NCBI GenBank assembly: GCA_965243025.1 | Contig: CBDETY010000003.1 | Span: forward strand, 2,880,001-2,944,000 | Source: Candidatus Latescibacterota bacterium | Lineage (GTDB): Bacteria; Latescibacterota; UBA2968; UBA8231 | Reading direction: 5' to 3' | DNA length: 64,000 nucleotides | In this document: piece by piece, positions 16,128-22,528 of the stretch | How the letters are laid out: each line of letters begins with the position of its first letter | Numbering within the stretch: position 1 is the first letter of the stretch | The notes under the pieces: model-generated | The model's database searches: none | The model's input: the letters and a program-made list of their open reading frames with translations, nothing else | What the model was told of the DNA's origin: nothing | Made by a program: the position numbers and the translations under genes

Positions 16128-18563
16128 TTACTCTTCAAAACCACTTTCACCTCCGGCTGCGAGGCGGTCGAGCTCTTCCAGCAGCTGCCGCCGCGTGGAC
16201 ATGAACTCCTCCGGATCCCCGGTGAAGTCGGTAAGGGAGCGCATCAGCCGGCTGCACAGCCGCCGGCCCGCGGCGCCGGCGTCCCCTTTCCGCAGGCTCA
16301 GCATCTGCAGCAGCTCGTAATCCTCGATGCCGTCGCGGACGTTCTCGAACCGGAGCGACGACACCGGGCCCTCCTCCCCCGGAAAGATCAGACAGCCGTC
16401 GCCGTTGGCGGTCCCGAACGAGGCGGGGTCCCAGCTGGTCCTGTTCGATCCCGCGGCGGTGCCCAGCGGCCCCTCCCCGCCGGGCCAGCGGTTGAGGGTG
16501 TAGTAGAGAAACCCGGTCACTCCCCGGCGCCAGGTCATCCACCAGAGCAGCCGCGCCTCGAGCAGCGGGTACTCGACGAACCAGTTGGCGAACGGAGCGG
16601 TGGGATCGATGCAGATGTACCACCAGACCTCCTTGCCCCGGGCGCGGGCGGCCGCGGCTGCGTCCTCGTCGTAGAGCGCGGTCAGCGGCACCCAGATATC
16701 GACGGCCTCGTCGAGGCCGCTCTCCAGGCCGTAGCTCGGATCCTTCGCCGTCGTCGCCGTCTTCACGTCCGGGAAACGCCGTTTCATGTACCCGAAGGCG
16801 GCCCTGAGATTGTCGAAGTCCGCCGCGGTCGCCTCGTCGAAGCCGTAGATGAAAGCCAGGTGCAGCAAACTCCGGGAGCGCAGGAACCGCACCGTCGGCT
16901 CCAGGCTGTCGGCGATGGCGGCCAGCTCCCGCTCCGTGTAATCGCGGGCCCGCAGGTTTACGAGGTTGGCGGCGTTCAACCGGCGGCGCGCGGCGAGCTC
17001 GGCCAGCTCCTGCCCGCCCGGCGGCGAGCGCCGGTACAGGTGGGTGACGTTGAGCCGGTGCGCGGCGATGAAGTCGCGGTATTGTAGGTAAATGGCTTCG
17101 CCGCGGCGACTTCGTGACCCCGCCCGGGTCTCGGTCCCGTAGACCTTCTCCAGCATGTCGTCGTAGAGCGAGAAGGCGGTGCGGACCGTGGTGGAGTCGG
17201 GCAGCACCGGATGGTGAACGGTCACCTGGAGCGGCACGGAACCGGCCGGTTGCCCGTCCGCGGAGATCTCGACGGAACCCCGGTACACCCCCGGAGCGGT
17301 CGTATCGGCAGTCGCAAACGTCAGCCACAGCGGCGTCGCCTCCCCTGCCCTCGCCGCGACCCTGGACCGCGGCAGCAGGGGGTCCGGCCACCAGCCGGCG
17401 AAATCGACGGCGTACTCCCCGGGGGCCTCGGTCTTCACGTACCCCACCACGTCGATGCGGCAGCCGCCGGGAGAAAAGGGGGTCCTGCCGTCGGCGTGGC
17501 GCAGCGGGCCGACCGCGGCTTCAAGCCCGGCATGTACGCGGCTCAGCAGCACCAGCTGCACCGACTCCTGCTCGTTTCTCGCCAGGTCCACGGACAGTGG
17601 TCCGGCCTCTTCCGCCGGCGGGAACTCGTACACCTCCCGGCCGATGCCGGGCCAGCTGTGCGGAAACAGCTTCTCCACCGGGGTCGCCCCCCAGGCGGCC
17701 AGCTGCGGGCGCGTGGAAACGGGACGGGCGGACACCTCTCCGACGGGCATTTCCATCGACTCGCCCCAGATGCTGTCCTCTGCGGCCAGGGTTACCTCCC
17801 AGGTCTGCGGCGAAACCCCGGGAGCCGGCTTCCACTCGTACTCGATCCCCGTATCGATGGCGCGGGCGTACCCCGCCGGCAGCCCCTGCCCGTCGCGCAC
17901 GACGACCTCGACCGCGGCCCGGCGGTTGAATTGCGCGGCGACCCGCAGCCCCCCGGAAGCCAGGGGATCGCGCACCGCTTCCAGCTCGAGAAGCTCGAGC
18001 CGCCCGGCTTCCAGGCGGATGTCGTCGATCAGGAGGGAGCGGTCCCGGGAGGGCTGCCGCATGTACAGGTCGAGCAGGCGCACGCGGCGGGTGTCGATCT
18101 CGCCGCCGAGACCGGCGATGGATACGGCGCAGGTGGTGGTGGTATCGGCGGAAACCGCGAGGATGCGGACGGCGCGGCGCCCCGCCGCGTCGTCGATGCG
18201 CAGCTTGAGATGGGCGGTTCCGCCGAGCAGCGACCGCGCCCCGAACTTCAGGGAGGTGAAGCCGCTCCAGTCGCCGGCATCGAACCCCCCGTCGCCGAAA
18301 TGCAGGCGCGCCGAGGGCCACTTGCCGGCCCCCCGGGTCCAGCGGGGGTACTGGAGGCGGGCTGCGGACCCCGGGCCGGGGTCCGCTGCCGCGAGTTCCA
18401 GGCTCGTCTGGCGCAGCCGCCAGTGGCCGGCGCCGCCTTCGAAATCCTCGAGGACGCGGACGCGGTCAGCCGGGGCGGCGGCCGCGGCGACTGCCAGGGC
18501 GAGCAGCAGCCCGGCCGCCTTCGTAGACCTCCTATGTTTCGTATTTGCTCTGCGGGATACCAT
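16128..18563 (-). CDS. Secreted DUF4091 / GH123-like glycoside hydrolase domain protein
   Basis: Signal peptide, CBM-like N-domain, LARNEQESVQL, WWPDPLLP, PGVYRG, GFDE, VWWY, GFLYY, NGDG.LIFPG..SSLRFENVRDGIEDYE. Confidence 0.8.
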   Translation of the reverse strand: MVSRRANTKHRRSTKAAGLLLALAVAAAAAPADRVRVLEDFEGGAGHWRLRQTSLELAAADPGPGSAARLQYPRWTRGAGKWPSARLHFGDGGFDAGDWSGFTSLKFGARSLLGGTAHLKLRIDDAAGRRAVRILAVSADTTTTCAVSIAGLGGEIDTRRVRLLDLYMRQPSRDRSLLIDDIRLEAGRLELLELEAVRDPLASGGLRVAAQFNRRAAVEVVVRDGQGLPAGYARAIDTGIEYEWKPAPGVSPQTWEVTLAAEDSIWGESMEMPVGEVSARPVSTRPQLAAWGATPVEKLFPHSWPGIGREVYEFPPAEEAGPLSVDLARNEQESVQLVLLSRVHAGLEAAVGPLRHADGRTPFSPGGCRIDVVGYVKTEAPGEYAVDFAGWWPDPLLPRSRVAARAGEATPLWLTFATADTTAPGVYRGSVEISADGQPAGSVPLQVTVHHPVLPDSTTVRTAFSLYDDMLEKVYGTETRAGSRSRRGEAIYLQYRDFIAAHRLNVTHLYRRSPPGGQELAELAARRRLNAANLVNLRARDYTERELAAIADSLEPTVRFLRSRSLLHLAFIYGFDEATAADFDNLRAAFGYMKRRFPDVKTATTAKDPSYGLESGLDEAVDIWVPLTALYDEDAAAAARARGKEVWWYICIDPTAPFANWFVEYPLLEARLLWWMTWRRGVTGFLYYTLNRWPGGEGPLGTAAGSNRTSWDPASFGTANGDGCLIFPGEEGPVSSLRFENVRDGIEDYELLQMLSLRKGDAGAAGRRLCSRLMRSLTDFTGDPEEFMSTRRQLLEELDRLAAGGESGFEE

Positions 18564-18664
18564 TCAGGCAGCTGCCTTGCCGTTCACCATGTTGTTGCCC
18601 GCAAAACTCCTCATCTTGAAATTCCAATCAAGACAACCCGTCGATACGGATGGAAGCTGGACTT

Positions 18665-18674
18665 GATGAGGACG
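18665..18674 (+). repeat. 10-bp direct repeat GATGAGGACG, left copy
   Basis: Identical to 21211-21220; the pair brackets the ATPase-PIN-ligase cassette. Confidence 0.4.
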
Positions 18675-18697
18675 GGAATCCGGCAGGAGCAATGGAT

Positions 18698-20056
18698 ATG
18701 CTGAACCACCTCAAAATCGAAAATTTCAAAGCCTGGAAGGAAGCGGATCTGACGCTTGGCAAAGTGACCGGATTCTTCGGGCCCAACAGCGCCGGAAAGA
18801 GCAGCCTTCTCCAGTTTCTCCTTCTACTCAAGCAGACTCGAAACGCCACGGACCGAGGCTTGGTCCTGGATTTCGGAGGGCCGGGGGACATGGTGAATCT
18901 TGGGACCTTCAAAGACGTGGTTCACCAGCAAGATGAACAGACCCGGATAAGCTGGGCCCTTGACTGGACACTGTCGGAGCGTCTCCGGATAAATGACCCG
19001 ATGAAACTCCGAAGCAGAACGCTGTTCGTTGGCGATTGCCTTCGGACGCGTTGTGAGGTGGGCTTGAGGCAGACAACCCTGTGGCCCTACGAGCTGGCCT
19101 ATCGGTTCGCTGAAGTGGATTTCAGGCTGCGGCCCGAAGATGGCTCCCAAACGGAATTCGATCTGGAGGACACGGCCGAATTCCAATTCATACGCAACCG
19201 GGGCCGTCCCTGGCGGCTTCCGCGTCCGGTCAAGACCTACCGATTTCCCGACGAAACGAGGGTCTACTATCAGAACGCGGATTTCCTTGGTGATTTCGAG
19301 TTGGCCTACGAGAAGCTGATGGACTCGGTCTACTATCTGGGCCCCTTGCGCGAGTACCCGCGGCGGGAGTATCACTGGGGCGGTTCGAGTCCTGAGGACG
19401 TCGGACAGCGAGGCGAGCGCACCGTAGACGCCATACTGGCCGCAACTCGCGACGGAATAACGAGAAGTCTCGGTCGACGGAAACGAAAAAAGCCGTTCCA
19501 GGAGATGATCGCCTTTTGGCTGAACGAGCTTGGGCTGATTCGCGATTTCCGTATCGAGGAAATCGCAGAGGGAACCAATCTGTACCGGGCGATGGTCAGG
19601 ACCTCCGCATCGAGCGTGCCCACAGGACTGACCGACGTTGGGTTCGGTGTATCCCAGGTTCTGCCAGCCCTGGTCTTGCTATACTACGTCCCCGAAGGTT
19701 CGACGGTGCTGTTGGAGCAGCCGGAAATTCATCTCCATCCGGGGGTGCAGAGTGGACTGGCGGATGTCATGTTGAAGGTCGCCGAGACTCGAAACGTGCA
19801 GATCATCCTGGAGAGCCACAGCGAGCACCTGATGCGGCGCCTGCAACGCCGGGTGGCGGAAGAGACCACTTCCTCCGGGGACGTGAAGTTGTATTTCGTA
19901 TCAACGAATCGAGGCGCTGCCCAAGCCACCGATCTTGCCCTGAACGAGTGGGGCGAGATCGAAAATTGGCCTGATCAGTTCTTCGGCGACGAAATGGGGG
20001 AGATCGCGGCGATCACCAAGGCTTCCTTGAGTAGAAAAATGAAGGTGTCCGCATGA
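18698..20056 (+). CDS. AAA_21-type ABC ATPase with C-terminal DUF3696
   Basis: LKIENFKAW, Walker A GPNSAGKSS, YLGPLR, DVGFGVSQ, Walker B VLLEQPE.HLHP, ESHSEH, C-terminal GEIENWPDQFF. AGGAG RBS. Confidence 0.88.
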   Translation: MLNHLKIENFKAWKEADLTLGKVTGFFGPNSAGKSSLLQFLLLLKQTRNATDRGLVLDFGGPGDMVNLGTFKDVVHQQDEQTRISWALDWTLSERLRINDPMKLRSRTLFVGDCLRTRCEVGLRQTTLWPYELAYRFAEVDFRLRPEDGSQTEFDLEDTAEFQFIRNRGRPWRLPRPVKTYRFPDETRVYYQNADFLGDFELAYEKLMDSVYYLGPLREYPRREYHWGGSSPEDVGQRGERTVDAILAATRDGITRSLGRRKRKKPFQEMIAFWLNELGLIRDFRIEEIAEGTNLYRAMVRTSASSVPTGLTDVGFGVSQVLPALVLLYYVPEGSTVLLEQPEIHLHPGVQSGLADVMLKVAETRNVQIILESHSEHLMRRLQRRVAEETTSSGDVKLYFVSTNRGAAQATDLALNEWGEIENWPDQFFGDEMGEIAAITKASLSRKMKVSA

Positions 20057-20526
20057 CGGCATTCGTCGTGGATACCAATGTCGCGATAGCCGCGAACGGG
20101 AGAGAGACCCACGCAGATGACCTGTGCCGACTGGCTTGTATGGAGAAACTGGAACACCTGGTCGAGAGGGGAACCGTGACCGTCGATAAATCAGGTCTCG
20201 TTCTGGAGGAGTATGCAAACCACTTGTGCTTGTCTGGAAATCCAGGCGTTGGGGATGCCTTCTTCAGGCATGTTTTCAACAACCAGTACCAAAACCACCG
20301 GGTTCGAAGGGTCGCGGTTACGCCATCCGACGATGACCGGAGAGGGTTTGAAGAACTTCCCGAGAACAGGTTTGACCGGTCGGACCGGAAATTCCTCGCG
20401 GTCGCGGTGGCCGCAAAGGCAGTCGTTCTGAACGCGACCGACAGCGACTGGGGCGAGCACGAATCGTTGATGGACGAACTGGGCGTGGAAGTCAAACAGC
20501 TCTGCCCTCAACACGCAACAAAATGA
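20053..20526 (+). CDS. PIN-domain-like protein (putative RNase)
   Basis: FVVDTNV, LEEY, FDRSDRKFLAVA, ATDSDW give the PIN acidic residue pattern. ATGA-coupled to the ATPase. Confidence 0.7.
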   Translation: MTAFVVDTNVAIAANGRETHADDLCRLACMEKLEHLVERGTVTVDKSGLVLEEYANHLCLSGNPGVGDAFFRHVFNNQYQNHRVRRVAVTPSDDDRRGFEELPENRFDRSDRKFLAVAVAAKAVVLNATDSDWGEHESLMDELGVEVKQLCPQHATK

Positions 20527-20558
20527 CGTCTCCGGGGAGCAGGTGAGGACCGAAGCCT

Positions 20559-21215
20559 TTGAACCCCAAGTATCCCAAGACCCCGTACTGGCCCTGGTCG
20601 CCGTTCATCGGTCGCGACGACACGGTACATAAAAACCCGGACAGATTCGTCGGCGAACCCGTGGTTGTGACGGAAAAGCTGGACGGCGGCAACACGCTGC
20701 TTCACTCAGGCGAGGTTTATGGACGCAGCGTGTCGACCCCATGCGAAGGCAAGTGGATGGCGATGGTGAAGAAACACCACGCCTGGAAAGTGAGGGAGCC
20801 GGATCTGTATCTCTACGGCGAGGATATCTACGGGGTCCACAGCATCGCGTACGACCCCGTGCCGGAGAACCGGACCTTCCATGCATTTGCGCTGAGGGAC
20901 GGAGGCGGTGCATTCGCCTCCTTTTCGGAAGTCGAAGCCTATGCGAAGCGGCAGGGAATCCCGGTTGTCCCGGTCCTTTTCAAGGGCCGCTTCAAGTCGC
21001 TTGCCGAGATACGCGCGTTTCTGGAGCGCGCGCATGGGGAAGCCTCCCTGCTTGGAGGAGAGCGGGAGGGCGTCGTACTACGGCTGGCCGGCGGCTTTCC
21101 CGAGGCGGAATTTCCGCAAAGTGTCTGCAAGAGCGTCCGCCCTGACCACGTGCAGAGCGAAGAACACTGGTCCAGGAACTGGGTCCCGTGCAAAATCGCA
21201 CGGGACCCTGGATGA
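20559..21215 (+). CDS. Rnl2-like RNA ligase family nucleotidyltransferase
   Basis: KYPKTP, motif I TEKLDGGN, III LYGE, IIIa FHAFAL, VVPVLF.G, IV EREGVVLR, V CKSV. TTG start after GGTGAGG. Confidence 0.85.
   Translation: MNPKYPKTPYWPWSPFIGRDDTVHKNPDRFVGEPVVVTEKLDGGNTLLHSGEVYGRSVSTPCEGKWMAMVKKHHAWKVREPDLYLYGEDIYGVHSIAYDPVPENRTFHAFALRDGGGAFASFSEVEAYAKRQGIPVVPVLFKGRFKSLAEIRAFLERAHGEASLLGGEREGVVLRLAGGFPEAEFPQSVCKSVRPDHVQSEEHWSRNWVPCKIARDPG
21181..21208. terminator. Perfect 11-bp hairpin between convergent genes
   Basis: GGGTCCCGTGC-AAAATC-GCACGGGACCC at the ligase 3' end. No clear U-tract. Confidence 0.35.
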
Positions 21216-21220
21216 GGACG
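21211..21220 (+). repeat. 10-bp direct repeat GATGAGGACG, right copy
   Basis: Contains the ligase stop codon; identical to 18665-18674. Confidence 0.4.
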
Positions 21221-21264
21221 CTTCTCCTTCCTGGATTCGGAGGGTTACCCCTTGGTGGCCGCCT

Positions 21265-22260
21265 TCAGCGAATCGCCAGGGGCCGGCCGGGGGAGCCGGT
21301 CCCGCCCTTGAAGCGGATCGGGGCGAACACGAACAGGAACTCGTAGACCTCGTCCTCGACGAGCCCGTCGAACACCATGTTTTCGAGGTTCCAGATGCCG
21401 TGCTTGCAGATCAGCTCGGTGTGCACGGGGAATGCAAGACCCTCCTGGGGGTTCGGGATCACTTCGCCGTTCCACTGGTCGGATCCCCACATCGAGGCAT
21501 TGCGCTCGGCGACCCAGGCCGCTACCTCGAGACCGATTCCGGGCGGGTTGGTGTTGTACTTGTCGCCGTCGGTCCAGTACTTCGACCAACCGTAGCGGAA
21601 GAAGAGGGCGTCCCCGTCCTTCAAATCCTGCTCAGACATCCCCTGGCGCTCGAGAGCGGCTCTCACGTCGGCGACGGTCACCTCGTAGCTGTGGTCGAGC
21701 GCCTCCATCCCCTTCTGGCCGGCAATGTCGATCAGTACGCCGCGGGTCAGGTACGGTTTGACCTGCTCGATGCCGAGCTTCCGCAGGCCGTAGGAGCCCT
21801 CTATCTCGTCGATGGGGAAGCCGTTGTAGAACACATCCTGCACGGACCCGTCCCCCATGGTGGTGCGGACGCCGATGTGGCCGGGGCCGTCGAACTGGGT
21901 TCCGACCTGACCGATCTCGGCCGTGAGGATCTCGTCGAAGTAGACGAGGGCGTTGTCGCCGAAGGGTCCGCCCGTGGGAGAACCCGGAATGAACATCGAG
22001 TAGGTGCGGCCCTCGAACAGGGGAATGCCGCGCTCGTACACCTGCCCGAGCTCGTACACCTTGCCCGTCTTCACGAGCTGGACCGCCTCGAGGATCTTCT
22101 CCGGGGTTATCCAGTTCGAGCCTCCCGCCTGGTCCTCGGGCCCCCACAGCGGGTGGGGCCACCACGGCCCTTTTTCGCGGGTCTGCGCAAGGCTTTCGCC
22201 GGCGACGGCGACTGCGATCGCCGCGCATGCCAGGGTCAGGGTCAGTTGACGCAGTTTCAT
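21265..22260 (-). CDS. Cyclase / kynurenine formamidase-like family protein with signal peptide
   Basis: WGPEDQAG, QVGTQFDGPGH, TRGVLID, PGIG, ENM, GGTGSP.RPLA. N-terminal MKLRQ..AVAGESLA. AGGAGG RBS. Confidence 0.88.
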   Translation of the reverse strand: MKLRQLTLTLACAAIAVAVAGESLAQTREKGPWWPHPLWGPEDQAGGSNWITPEKILEAVQLVKTGKVYELGQVYERGIPLFEGRTYSMFIPGSPTGGPFGDNALVYFDEILTAEIGQVGTQFDGPGHIGVRTTMGDGSVQDVFYNGFPIDEIEGSYGLRKLGIEQVKPYLTRGVLIDIAGQKGMEALDHSYEVTVADVRAALERQGMSEQDLKDGDALFFRYGWSKYWTDGDKYNTNPPGIGLEVAAWVAERNASMWGSDQWNGEVIPNPQEGLAFPVHTELICKHGIWNLENMVFDGLVEDEVYEFLFVFAPIRFKGGTGSPGRPLAIR

Positions 22261-22528
22261 GGTTGCTCCTCCTGTCTGAAGTGGACGCCAAGTACCGCCA
22301 AACCGGTGGAGTCCGTCAATATCCGCTTCCTTGGACCCCGTTGCCGACAGCCGGGGGCCCCACACTCTTCCTGTCCACCCTTATATTTCCCGGCTCGAAA
22401 ACCGCTGGAAATCCTGATTACCTGAATTTCAGAACGTCAGCAAAGCCACCGATCCGTCCACCGGGATTCGTTACCTGAAATCCGGAATCGTCGGGCACCT
22501 GAGGGACCGGCTGCTGAATGAGACACGA

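Follow-up and report, generated by a model that had tools for sequence, protein, structure and literature searches.

To our knowledge, defences that act through an RNase (PrrC, PARIS, retron-Septu and VapC-like toxins among them) are generally regarded as one-way: the host breaks its tRNA, and repair enzymes come only from phages. Abortive infection would not seem to call for a repair enzyme encoded by the host, and a locus in Candidatus Latescibacterota raises the question of why a bacterial operon would place an RNA ligase beside a nuclease. In the 64,000-nucleotide stretch of DNA that we analyzed (the window), three co-oriented genes on the + strand at 18698–21215 encode an ABC ATPase that ends in a DUF3696 tail, a nuclease of the PIN type and an RNA ligase of family PF09414.

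The layout of the locus is that of a compact cassette. The listed + strand open reading frames span 18650–20056, 20053–20526 (157 aa) and 20559–21215 (218 aa). Within the first, the ATPase starts at the ATG at 18698, with GGAG 9 nt upstream, giving a 452-aa ABC-type protein (18698–20056) with a C-terminal DUF3696 tail, whose first methionine is invariant in a 33-sequence alignment. An ATGA overlap at 20053–20056 joins its stop to the start of the gene for the 157-aa VapC-like PIN-domain nuclease (20053–20526, stop codon 20524–20526). A 32-nt spacer (20527–20558, + strand) follows, in which the Shine-Dalgarno-like sequence AGGTGAGGA can be read, and the gene for the 218-aa minimal ATP-dependent RNA ligase (20559–21215), which consists of the adenylyltransferase domain only, then runs from a TTG at 20559 to a stop codon at 21213–21215. 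The whole low-GC cassette (18564–21264; 57–59% GC, against ~70% in the upstream flank) is bounded by a GH123 gene (− strand, ending at 18563) and a cyclase gene (− strand, starting at 21265), and the flanking families are metabolic: GH123, GFO/IDH/MocA, PIG-L, cyclase, aldo-keto reductase, PhyH and UxuA-like. Repeats marking the ends of a mobile element were not found at the cassette. Two congeneric genomes share the insertion site, and their flanks are 85–90% identical.

The ATPase and the PIN protein are full-length members of both families of a known defence system, HEC-03. The PADLOC profile of the HEC-03 ATPase, PDLC04148, matches the first protein with E = 2.2e-206 (684 bits; residues 1–450 against profile positions 1–455 of 458), and that of the HEC-03 PIN protein, PDLC04147, matches the second with E = 1.6e-67 (residues 4–157 against 3–157 of 159), bearing out the proposal of the initial annotation that this is an ABC ATPase with a PIN effector of the defence kind. 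Pfam assigns the ATPase to AAA_15 (1.4e-23), AAA_21 (4.8e-20) and DUF3696 (1.9e-07, residues 393–437). The Menshen NsnB model matches it at 1.3e-63 (residues 1–430), making this HEC-03 component NsnB-like, whereas the AriA, GajA and Old profiles give partial matches (E 1e-9 to 3e-26) that are far weaker than HEC-03. Invariant positions in the 33 sequences comprise the P-loop residues G28, N30, G33, K34 and S36, together with Q341, P342, H345 and H347 and with E372, H374 and S375, blocks that we take to be the Walker A, Walker B and H-loop motifs. The ATPase is presumed to be the sensor and gatekeeper of the system.

By sequence, the PIN protein is a divergent member of its family, in which fold and catalytic residues are present. 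Its Pfam matches fall below the cut-offs (PIN_3, 2.5e-4 and 22.3 bits against 27; PIN, 15.3 bits against 23.6). An AlphaFold2 model (pLDDT 94.4) nevertheless aligns by VIA-align to Mycobacterium tuberculosis VapC21 (5sv2; Z 10.3, rmsd 2.6, 119 aligned residues) and VapC11 (Z 10.0), with 44 chains at Z ≥ 8, mostly VapC or PIN; Foldseek E-values for the same model are weak (best 2e-3). PIN domains carry a D-E-D-D quartet of acidic residues, according to the available sections of PMC12065111, and the corresponding D7, E53, D111 and D130 do not vary across 37 sequences. The three genes are real, as are the coupling and the catalytic motifs reported for them, and all three proteins keep their catalytic residues, which are invariant in homologues.

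What has been described for HEC-03 (Hma-embedded candidate 03) is a two-gene system of ATPase and PIN that protects E. coli from phages, needs both genes for defence and is toxic on induction, so that plates were kept without IPTG "due to apparent toxicity"; the available text of that study nowhere uses the word "ligase" (Payne et al., bioRxiv 10.1101/2024.01.29.577857). The A and B component names of HEC-03 are opposite in PADLOC and in Payne et al. The window locus shares with the described form an adjacent, co-oriented ABC ATPase and VapC-like PIN that match both profiles almost end to end, but it differs in lying among metabolic genes rather than embedded in Hma or restriction systems, in carrying a conserved third gene and in belonging to a distinct ATPase clade. 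We therefore regard the locus as a three-gene variant of HEC-03, in which the pair is already known and the ligase is the added component. The initial annotation did not recognize the triad as a named system and had counted a match to a described one as refuting its proposal; for two of the three genes, the pair, such a match exists.

Several other systems resemble the locus in part. Menshen (NsnABC) shares an ABC ATPase with a DUF3696 tail, and the available sections of PMC12065111 report a prediction that the NsnB tail binds NsnC through the PIN-like N-domain of the latter. That PIN-like domain is described as catalytically dead and fused to another nuclease, whereas the window PIN keeps its D-E-D-D quartet and stands alone, and "ligase" occurs 0 times in the portion of PMC12065111 available. 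Menshen was rejected as an identification: no NsnA (ParB-DUF262) lies in the flanks, the PIN protein has no second domain, and only the NsnB-like ATPase is common to both. PARIS, Gabija, Septu and the OLD family likewise couple an ABC ATPase sensor to a nuclease effector, but the effector is TOPRIM or HNH there and PIN in the window. We know of no such system with a ligase. PARIS (AriA/AriB) was also rejected, with no TOPRIM match in the neighbours and an AriA match that is partial (E 2.9e-26, residues 297–378).

What kind of enzyme is the added component? Pfam PF09414 (RNA_ligase) matches residues 33–190 at 2.6e-18 (67.2 bits against a cut-off of 27; profile positions 1–168 of 171), and the PHROG "RNA ligase" families phrog_24030 (1.2e-31) and phrog_34045 (likewise E ~1e-31) match as well, whereas no PADLOC or NCBIfam model does. 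In alignments of 24–34 sequences, E39, K40 (of KxDG), D42, G43, G87, E88, E170, G171, R175, K191 and V193 are invariant; we presume that these blocks correspond to the numbered motifs I–V, with an Arg in motif IV at the position that is usually Lys. The AlphaFold2 model (pLDDT 90.9) is a single domain with an adenylyltransferase fold, its top Foldseek matches in the PDB being Rnl3 (8uch, 2vug), Naegleria Rnl5 (6vt4, 5cou), T4 Rnl2 (2hvr, 1s68) and Trl1-LIG (probability 1.00, E 2e-6 to 2e-4, TMq 0.5–0.57). The matched chains are longer, at 233–411 residues (TMt 0.29–0.49), and a sequence search of the PDB returned nothing significant (best E 0.37, to an unrelated protein). Filing the enzyme under Rnl1, Rnl2, Rnl3 or Rnl5 was rejected, as it has 218 aa and one domain, without a family-specific flanking domain.

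Is this ligase part of the system or merely its neighbour? The initial annotation had staked its proposal on linkage of the ligase to ATPase–PIN pairs elsewhere, and the linkage recurs in many genomes, in several phyla and on plasmids. Across 168 genomes from the window's phylum, 15 places match the ligase, and 12 of these lie directly downstream of a PIN match. In a phylum locus set gathered with both PIN and ligase queries, it lies directly 3′ of the PIN gene in 14 of 28 HEC-03 loci with a PIN (present in G000, L002–L008, L010–L013, L028 and L029; absent from L014–L027). On genome contigs, 21 close homologues (62–76% identity) span at least six phyla, and a full or decayed ATPase and PIN pair lies upstream at 15 of these 21 loci, which come from Acidobacteriota, Alpha- and Gammaproteobacteria, Gemmatimonadota, Binatia and Thermodesulfobacteriota. 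Azotobacter pAcX50e and a pAsa9-like plasmid of Aeromonas salmonicida both have the RefSeq annotation "DUF3696 / hypothetical / RNA ligase family protein", and triad-matching coordinates occur on plasmids of Rhodococcus, Tistrella and five more Aeromonas.

These data bear on the possibility that the ligase is functionally independent, either an enzyme of RNA repair or a selfish passenger, and merely accompanies some of the HEC-03 cassettes. Consistent with this, lone copies without a nearby ATPase or PIN exist (L009, which belongs to the phylum set, and L031, L035, L046 and L048), and such ligases could equally have a separate use of their own. The window ligase also has its own ribosome-binding site beyond the 32-nt spacer and no model in the defence libraries, and the two-gene form is enough for defence in the available account of Payne et al. 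However, the ligase occurs in two HEC-03 lineages, as members of two ligase subfamilies, in the same position and on the same strand, and the start of the region homologous to the ligase falls −40 to +82 nt from the PIN stop, on the same strand, in 34 loci with the triad. Identity to the window for ATPase, PIN and ligase, respectively, falls in parallel, from 88/74/89% through 61/62/65% to 34/35/31%, as expected of genes that diverge together. Among 49 metagenome loci picked by their PIN and having at least 750 nt of downstream sequence, 8 carry the ligase and 41 do not, and its 8 members make it the largest recurrent family among genes 3′ of the PIN. We consider an independent ligase very improbable.

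The distribution on the ATPase tree has the same bearing. Presence of the ligase requires 2 changes on a tree of 74 rows, against a mean of 23.5 when shuffled, and falls into two clades, A with 24 rows (SH-aLRT 94) and B with 6 rows (SH-aLRT 99); a single clade for all ligase-bearing rows is rejected (p-AU 0.0098). In the ligase tree, the two HEC-03-linked groups lie on opposite sides of a split with a support of 100, each alongside ligases without PIN linkage. Because the two groups belong to different ligase subfamilies, the trees suggest that HEC-03 captured a ligase twice, independently. In two sub-branches of HEC-03, the PF09414 ligase is a third gene that is inherited together with the pair and tightly coupled to it. 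It is dispensable for HEC-03 as such, with a minority of HEC-03 loci carrying it. At L118, an intact pair related to clade A is followed by a different gene in place of the ligase, and on one Aeromonas caviae plasmid the annotated ATPase and PIN are kept while an IS256-like element interrupts the ligase.

The plasmid copies also raise the possibility that the triad is mainly a toxin-antitoxin-like cassette for mobile-element stabilization or addiction rather than a defence system, with the ligase or the ATPase countering a PIN toxin. On conjugative Aeromonas plasmids, the triad adjoins Hok/Gef and AbiEii toxin genes and a recombinase; its low GC and patchy cross-phylum spread, the VapC-like character of the PIN protein and the antidote-like survival of the ligase all fit such a role. 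Against it, the available text of Payne et al. reports that two-gene relatives protect E. coli from phages, and such relatives lie inside defence islands (L015, L020, L024, L025 and L182). HsdR is encoded downstream in 4 of the 9 two-gene loci, from 14 such loci, whose downstream open reading frames were scanned (L015, L020, L024 and L025); L015 additionally has SLATT, ThsB-TIR and QueC/TGT genes upstream, and at L182 a HEPN-DUF499 protein is encoded downstream. The window copy, moreover, lies on a chromosome, with synteny across three genomes of the genus, and addiction and defence can coexist. A search of viral contigs found no relative, which counts for neither side. Overall, we judge a mainly addictive role to be quite unlikely.

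If the ligase belongs to a defence system, what does it do there? PrrC offers the classical comparison: there, an RNase directed at tRNA during infection is under the control of an ABC-type ATPase module, and the break is undone by an ATP-dependent RNA ligase. Both prrC and the two-gene HEC-03 loci are found inside type I restriction loci, but the repair ligase of the PrrC case is phage-borne (T4 Pnkp and Rnl1) and serves counter-defence, whereas the window ligase is encoded in the defence operon. In PrrC and RloC, furthermore, the ATPase is fused to a HEPN-type nuclease, and the resulting cyclic-phosphate and 5′-OH ends require a kinase-phosphatase, whereas the window nuclease is a separate PIN protein with no healing enzyme: the triad contains no kinase, phosphoesterase, Tpt1 or methyltransferase.

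On balance we lean, with modest confidence, toward a model in which the triad is an ATPase-gated PIN RNase with the ligase as an enzymatic antidote that reseals PIN-cut RNA. The ABC ATPase would keep the PIN protein inactive through its DUF3696 tail, a contact modelled by analogy on Menshen NsnB, until a signal of infection frees or activates the nuclease. The PIN protein would then cut RNA used in translation, with tRNA or rRNA the likeliest target, and the ligase would rejoin the 3′-OH and 5′-phosphate ends expected from a metal-dependent PIN nuclease. We propose that the triad lacks an end-healing kinase or phosphatase because the PIN protein leaves such ends. In this way the ligase would soften the effect of leaky or accidental activation and allow cells to recover, acting as an enzymatic antidote or "reset" as opposed to a protein-binding antitoxin. 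PIN and VapC nucleases may leave other ends, because VapC expression has been reported to activate the Rtc operon, with a 2′,3′-cyclic-phosphate tRNA fragment as the proposed ligand (PMC7790460). Were the ends cyclic phosphate and 5′-OH, the window ligase alone could not seal them.

The genomic company of the ligase family also points toward repair. The nearest relatives of the clade A ligase outside HEC-03 (33–39% identity to the window ligase) adjoin a single protein with polynucleotide-kinase (AAA_33) and HD phosphoesterase parts in 17 of 51 loci, resembling healing-and-sealing cassettes such as Runella HD-Pnk and Pnkp/Hen1, although the triad has no healing enzymes and carries a damage-making nuclease instead. 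At L052, the ligase frame's 3′ end overlaps the HD-kinase frame, an arrangement also described, in the available part of PMC6097658, for the Runella HD-Pnk repair cluster. That these relatives sit in repair cassettes argues, by kinship, for a family that does repair.

The same linkage evidence is equally compatible with a ligase that acts in the system without repairing, by making PIN damage permanent or unrepairable by phages (for example, by rejoining after nucleotide excision, circularizing fragments or leaving 5′-adenylylated ends) or by nucleotidylating a protein or RNA as regulation. Such a role would remove the paradox of a host repair enzyme within an abortive-infection system. Rnl3 ligases, which circularize RNA, are among the closest solved folds, and the occurrence of the ligase family in phages (phrog_34045, phrog_24030) makes competition with phage ligases conceivable. 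The Runella ligase-like relative forms enzyme-AMP but, as far as the available text of PMC6097658 goes, did not seal the standard 3′-OH/5′-PO4 substrates tested. In contrast, the healing-and-sealing neighbourhoods and an adenylyltransferase core with no extra domain hinting at a special substrate speak against this role. Patterns of decay do as well: in the phylum set, three loci (L007, L008 and L011) have lost or truncated the PIN gene and kept an intact ligase, which fits an antidote or an independent enzyme better, and the reverse, loss of the ligase with an intact PIN, was not seen among these loci. We regard a non-repair role as unlikely.

Repair by the ligase is not an idea new to this locus. 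A conflict system of PIN_3, ATPase, ATP-grasp (RNA) ligase and HNH was predicted, without experiments, by Burroughs and Aravind (NAR 2016), who proposed that the ligase neutralizes the nuclease, according to a tabulated summary by Matelska et al. 2017 (PMC5499597). Judged by that table summary alone, the window locus may be related to their system: it has PIN_3 (a weak match), an ATPase and a ligase, the latter two perhaps of other families than theirs. An HNH nuclease is listed there as well; in 28 triad loci, compared without an HNH profile, no fourth gene recurred. To the extent that the summary conveys it, the repair-by-ligase hypothesis was in effect already put forward there. A further-reaching form of the antidote model, which we offer tentatively and do not count as probable, is that the twice-captured ligase supplies an "undo" step: translation RNA would be cut on phage sensing and then resealed, with recovery in place of death for cells that are infected or falsely triggered, making the system a self-contained, reversible abortive infection, and lone ligases would be stand-alone antidotes. 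In a bolder variant, cutting and rejoining would delete nucleotides from the target RNA, such that phage repair enzymes could not restore it.

In summary, a host operon itself encodes an RNA ligase beside a nuclease system that has experimentally validated two-gene relatives. PADLOC-type tools call two genes at such loci, and the ligase linked to them carries no annotation beyond "RNA ligase family protein". Natural controls are at hand in the two- and three-gene forms, the two apparent independent captures and the decay intermediates. If the ligase reseals the PIN cut, the triad would provide a simple model of how immune self-harm is limited and how cells return from growth arrest, and a testable enzymatic antidote, as opposed to a binding antitoxin.

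The three-gene cassette occupies positions 18698-21215 of the window, with all genes on the forward strand, and the initial annotation had its genes, their coupling, families and coordinates right in every detail that we checked. Gene 1 encodes an ATPase of 452 amino acids whose ATG start at 18698 is preceded by GGAG and whose first methionine is invariant among 33 homologues; it matches the Pfam families AAA_15, AAA_21 and DUF3696. The start of gene 2, which encodes a PIN protein of 157 amino acids (PIN_3, below threshold), overlaps the gene 1 stop as ATGA. Gene 3, encoding a 218-amino-acid protein with a clear match to PF09414 (RNA_ligase), begins at a TTG behind a 32-nt spacer containing AGGTGAGGA and ends at 21215. 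The cassette has a GC content of 57-59%, as against ~70% upstream, and lies among unrelated metabolic genes, namely GH123, an oxidoreductase and PIG-L upstream and a cyclase, an aldo-keto reductase, PhyH and a UxuA-like gene downstream. The flanks yielded no convincing direct or inverted repeats, marking no element end, and scans of the cassette gave no promoter-like sites and two terminator-like sites, on the opposite strand and no more than in shuffled sequences. Near-identical copies were assembled from sequencing runs belonging to 12 studies, several of them labelled sponge or marine metagenomes; no RNA runs are listed among the sequencing runs that hold the cassette (18698-21215).

The ATPase–PIN pair is a known, named system. 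PADLOC-DB assigns the ATPase to HEC-03B (E = 2.2e-206) and the PIN protein to HEC-03A (E = 1.6e-67), with nearly end-to-end matches for both; the second-best ATPase match is Menshen NsnB (1.3e-63), and those to AriA, GajA and Old are partial. NCBIfam has no model for the PIN protein and gives only a partial MAD3 match, far below cut-off, for the ATPase. The predicted PIN structure (pLDDT 94.4) aligns with M. tuberculosis VapC21 (Z 10.3, rmsd 2.6, 119 residues) and with many further VapC chains, and residues D7, E53, D111 and D130 are invariant among 37 homologues. Three cysteines of the PIN protein (window 20053-20526), C25, C29 and C151, are present in 37 of 37 aligned HEC-03 PINs, ligase-linked or not; this conservation suggests a metal site or a disulfide, either of which would be atypical for VapC toxins. 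The preprint by Payne et al. (bioRxiv 10.1101/2024.01.29.577857) describes HEC-03 as an ABC ATPase with a VapC-like PIN, embedded in Hma systems, attributes defence to these two proteins, and reports that IPTG was omitted from the plates for HEC-03 strains "due to apparent toxicity"; its text makes no mention of a ligase. The proposal of an ATPase-gated PIN RNase with an RNA-repair partner, acting in reversible abortive infection, is supported in part: the ligase is linked to the pair, the pair itself already bears the name HEC-03, and the repair role is plausible. A scan of viral contigs with the PIN alignment produced 43 pattern matches and no confirmed relatives.

The ligase gene is linked to ATPase–PIN pairs in many other genomes, in several phyla and on plasmids. 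Across 168 genomes of the window's phylum, the ligase was found at 15 places in 14 genomes and the PIN at 30 places in 27 genomes. In the phylum set (28 fetched loci, with a partial PIN match at G090:C1:3604303 left out), tblastn and blastp show the order ATPase-PIN-ligase at the window's own locus (G000) and at L002-L006, L010, L012, L013, L028 and L029; three loci are decayed triads (L007, L008, L011), one is a lone ligase (L009) and 14 have the ATPase and PIN only (L014-L027). Scanning one genome per species with the ligase alignment gave 80 loci. The 21 closest ligases (62-76% identity) belong to Acidobacteriota, Alpha- and Gammaproteobacteria, Gemmatimonadota, Binatia and Thermodesulfobacteriota; an ATPase and a PIN lie upstream in 15 of them (two visibly decayed, L038 and L043), two retain remnants only (L047, L049) and four are lone ligases. 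The remaining 59 ligases are more distant (32-39% identity), and neither an ATPase nor a PIN lies near any of them. For Azotobacter chroococcum pAcX50e, and likewise for a pAsa9-like plasmid of Aeromonas salmonicida on which Hok/Gef and AbiEii genes adjoin the triad, RefSeq annotates the series [quoted passage not shown]. Coordinates give the same gene order in Rhodococcus aetherivorans, Tistrella mobilis and five more Aeromonas plasmids; the pair with no ligase is carried by three Acinetobacter soli plasmids.

Metagenome loci picked by their PIN offer a view of what follows the pair. With at least 750 nt available downstream, 8 of 49 such loci have the ligase and 41 have none; one further locus, with 674 nt downstream of the PIN, also has it. 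The ligase, with 8 members, is the largest recurrent family downstream of the PIN in these loci. Wherever the spacing of a triad was examined (34 loci), sequence homologous to the ligase begins between -40 and +82 nt relative to the PIN stop and on the strand of the PIN gene. When the genes around 28 triad loci were clustered, as distinct from an HNH profile search, there was no conserved fourth gene, only lineage-specific synteny and common metabolic families (the ten checked in Pfam included SDRs, a phosphodiesterase, a molybdopterin enzyme and a TonB receptor).

A 37-row ATPase tree, in which 13 rows (loci L030-L050) owed their selection to ligase similarity, separates ligase-bearing from ligase-less loci by a single branch (SH-aLRT 93). 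When 37 PIN-selected metagenome rows were added, ligase presence took two changes on the resulting 74-row tree: clade A (24 rows, including the window) and clade B (6 rows) are each nested among ligase-less relatives. Every ATPase in these trees was free of stops and aligned over 400 residues or more, and metagenome loci also had at least 750 nt downstream of the PIN or a ligase match. The ligase tree, of 102 rows, places the clade A ligases with free-standing ones from Bacteroidota, Bacillota and Actinomycetota and the clade B ligases with plasmid ligases paired with an AAA ATPase; a 100-supported split lies between the two. A single origin of the ligase association is disfavoured by AU tests: forcing all ligase-bearing rows of the ATPase tree together costs 77.8 log-likelihood units (p-AU 0.0098), and forcing the HEC-03-linked ligases together, a group named after the tree had been seen, is weakly rejected (p-AU 0.040). 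All trees were quick, unrooted IQ-TREE runs with SH-aLRT support only and no bootstraps, so gain and loss are not formally separable. The simplest reading of these trees is that the ligase was probably captured twice, independently, at the same position, and no other comparative observation argues as strongly for a functional link.

The ligase itself has no PADLOC or NCBIfam model, and a PDB sequence search returned a single chance match (E = 0.37). Its predicted structure (pLDDT 90.9) matches the adenylyltransferase domains of Rnl3, Rnl5, T4 Rnl2 and Trl1 (Foldseek probability 1.00, TMq 0.5-0.57); because it lacks the extra domains of these enzymes, we consider it a minimal ligase, and we do not file it under any named Rnl family. 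Residues K40 (of KxDG), E88, E170-G171 and K191 are invariant in alignments that cover both HEC-03-linked clades and free-standing relatives, and phage relatives fall in phrog_34045 and phrog_24030 ("RNA ligase"; E ~1e-31). The nearest free-standing clade A relatives are adjoined in 17 of 51 loci by a protein that joins an AAA_33 polynucleotide kinase to an HD phosphoesterase. These neighbours come from Bacillales, Bacteroidota and one acidobacterial MAG (L051-L109; for example, L056:3530-4489 and L052:5027-6211), and their domain order is swapped, being kinase-HD in Bacillales and HD-kinase in Bacteroidota. The same healing-and-sealing layout (HD-Pnk and ligase) is described for Runella (PMC6097658); there, a healing enzyme stands beside the ligase, whereas the window's triad contains none. 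Longer relatives of the clade B ligase (~285 aa), at L112 on the P. aeruginosa plasmid NZ_CP115230 and at L115 on the Variovorax plasmid NZ_LR594667, have as their partner an "AAA family ATPase" of ~380 aa, not a PIN; this pairing may be another ligase–ATPase module. A complex prediction for the ligase with the ATPase and PIN, made from alignments of all three, gave no call (score 0.00, mark 0.32, no controls) and weighs neither way.

Patterns of decay add to this picture. Three genomes of the genus carry the cassette at one and the same chromosomal position, and their flanks share 85-90% identity. At L007 (G103:C1:376000-388000, compared with window 18520-22330), internal deletions equivalent to window 19355-19590 and 20140-20358 affect the ATPase and the PIN, respectively, and the ligase ORF, at 90% identity, is undamaged. 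A second, more distant triad in this genome (L006) has its ATPase split into two ORFs. L008 retains the ATPase and ligase with the PIN reduced to 28 codons, and L011 retains the ligase and part of the PIN, the ATPase being gone; the ligase tends to outlive the nuclease. Loss of the ligase with the pair kept was not seen among triad-clade loci of the phylum set, which was gathered by PIN and ligase queries. That reverse pattern is found on an A. caviae plasmid (L196, NZ_AP022111, 68541-69794), where an IS256-like element of the ISAeme25 family takes the ligase position of sister plasmids and the ATPase and PIN are still annotated as intact, a natural ligase knock-out, and at L118, where an intact related pair is followed by another gene instead of the ligase. 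The ligase is therefore not indispensable. The possibility that it serves as an obligate antitoxin is ruled out by the common two-gene forms and by the IS-disrupted A. caviae plasmid.

Two-gene and three-gene forms also appear to differ in their settings. A Pfam scan of the downstream ORF, covering 9 of the 14 two-gene phylum loci, placed a type I HsdR directly after the pair in 4 of 9 (L015, L020, L024, L025). In the dense defence island at L015:343-9581, the order is SLATT, TGT-like and QueC (7-deazaguanine type), an HhH glycosylase, a ThsB-like TIR, the ATPase and PIN, and type I HsdR. The second family downstream of the PIN in metagenome loci comprises 7 ORFs in 6 loci; its one scanned member, directly downstream of the pair at L182 (3518-6472), is a Swt1-like HEPN (HEPN_Swt1) and DUF499 protein with 985 aa or more, truncated at the edge of the locus, and related ORFs follow the PIN in 5 other metagenome loci. 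A helicase follows the pair at L161. The triad loci that we checked lie among metabolic genes or on plasmids. Two-gene loci often reside inside other defence loci; the few proteins scanned are suggestive of a contrast with triads.

At the level of sequence, it is evident that the three proteins belong to these families and keep their catalytic residues, and that their genes are coupled in an operon and inherited together. A repair mechanism is plausible, in which the ATPase would gate the PIN, the PIN would cut RNA of the translation machinery, and the ligase would reseal the cut RNA; in Menshen, the DUF3696 tail is predicted to bind a PIN-like domain (PMC12065111). In favour of resealing, clade A ligase relatives lie beside a kinase and HD phosphoesterase in 17 of 51 loci, and the lack of a healing enzyme in the triad is consistent with a metal-dependent nuclease, one that leaves ends requiring no healing. 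Against it, the Runella ligase-like protein is reported to have failed to seal standard substrates (PMC6097658), there is no settled end chemistry for VapC-type PINs (PMC7790460), and repair seems opposed to abortive infection.

The resealing idea, and perhaps this very triad, is already in print as a prediction. A table in Matelska et al. (PMC5499597) lists a conflict system of PIN_3, ATPase, RNA ligase and HNH predicted by Burroughs & Aravind 2016. That entry was the only mention of the triad that our literature search found, although Burroughs & Aravind 2016 and Krishnan et al. 2020 may describe it; for "HEC-03", the search found only the Payne preprint and census-type mentions. What appears to be new is the link between the triad and the experimentally validated HEC-03, the division of HEC-03 into clades with and without the ligase, and the two ligase captures together with the pattern of decay. 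The finding would be of more interest if the reading of the triad as a reversible immune system were true.
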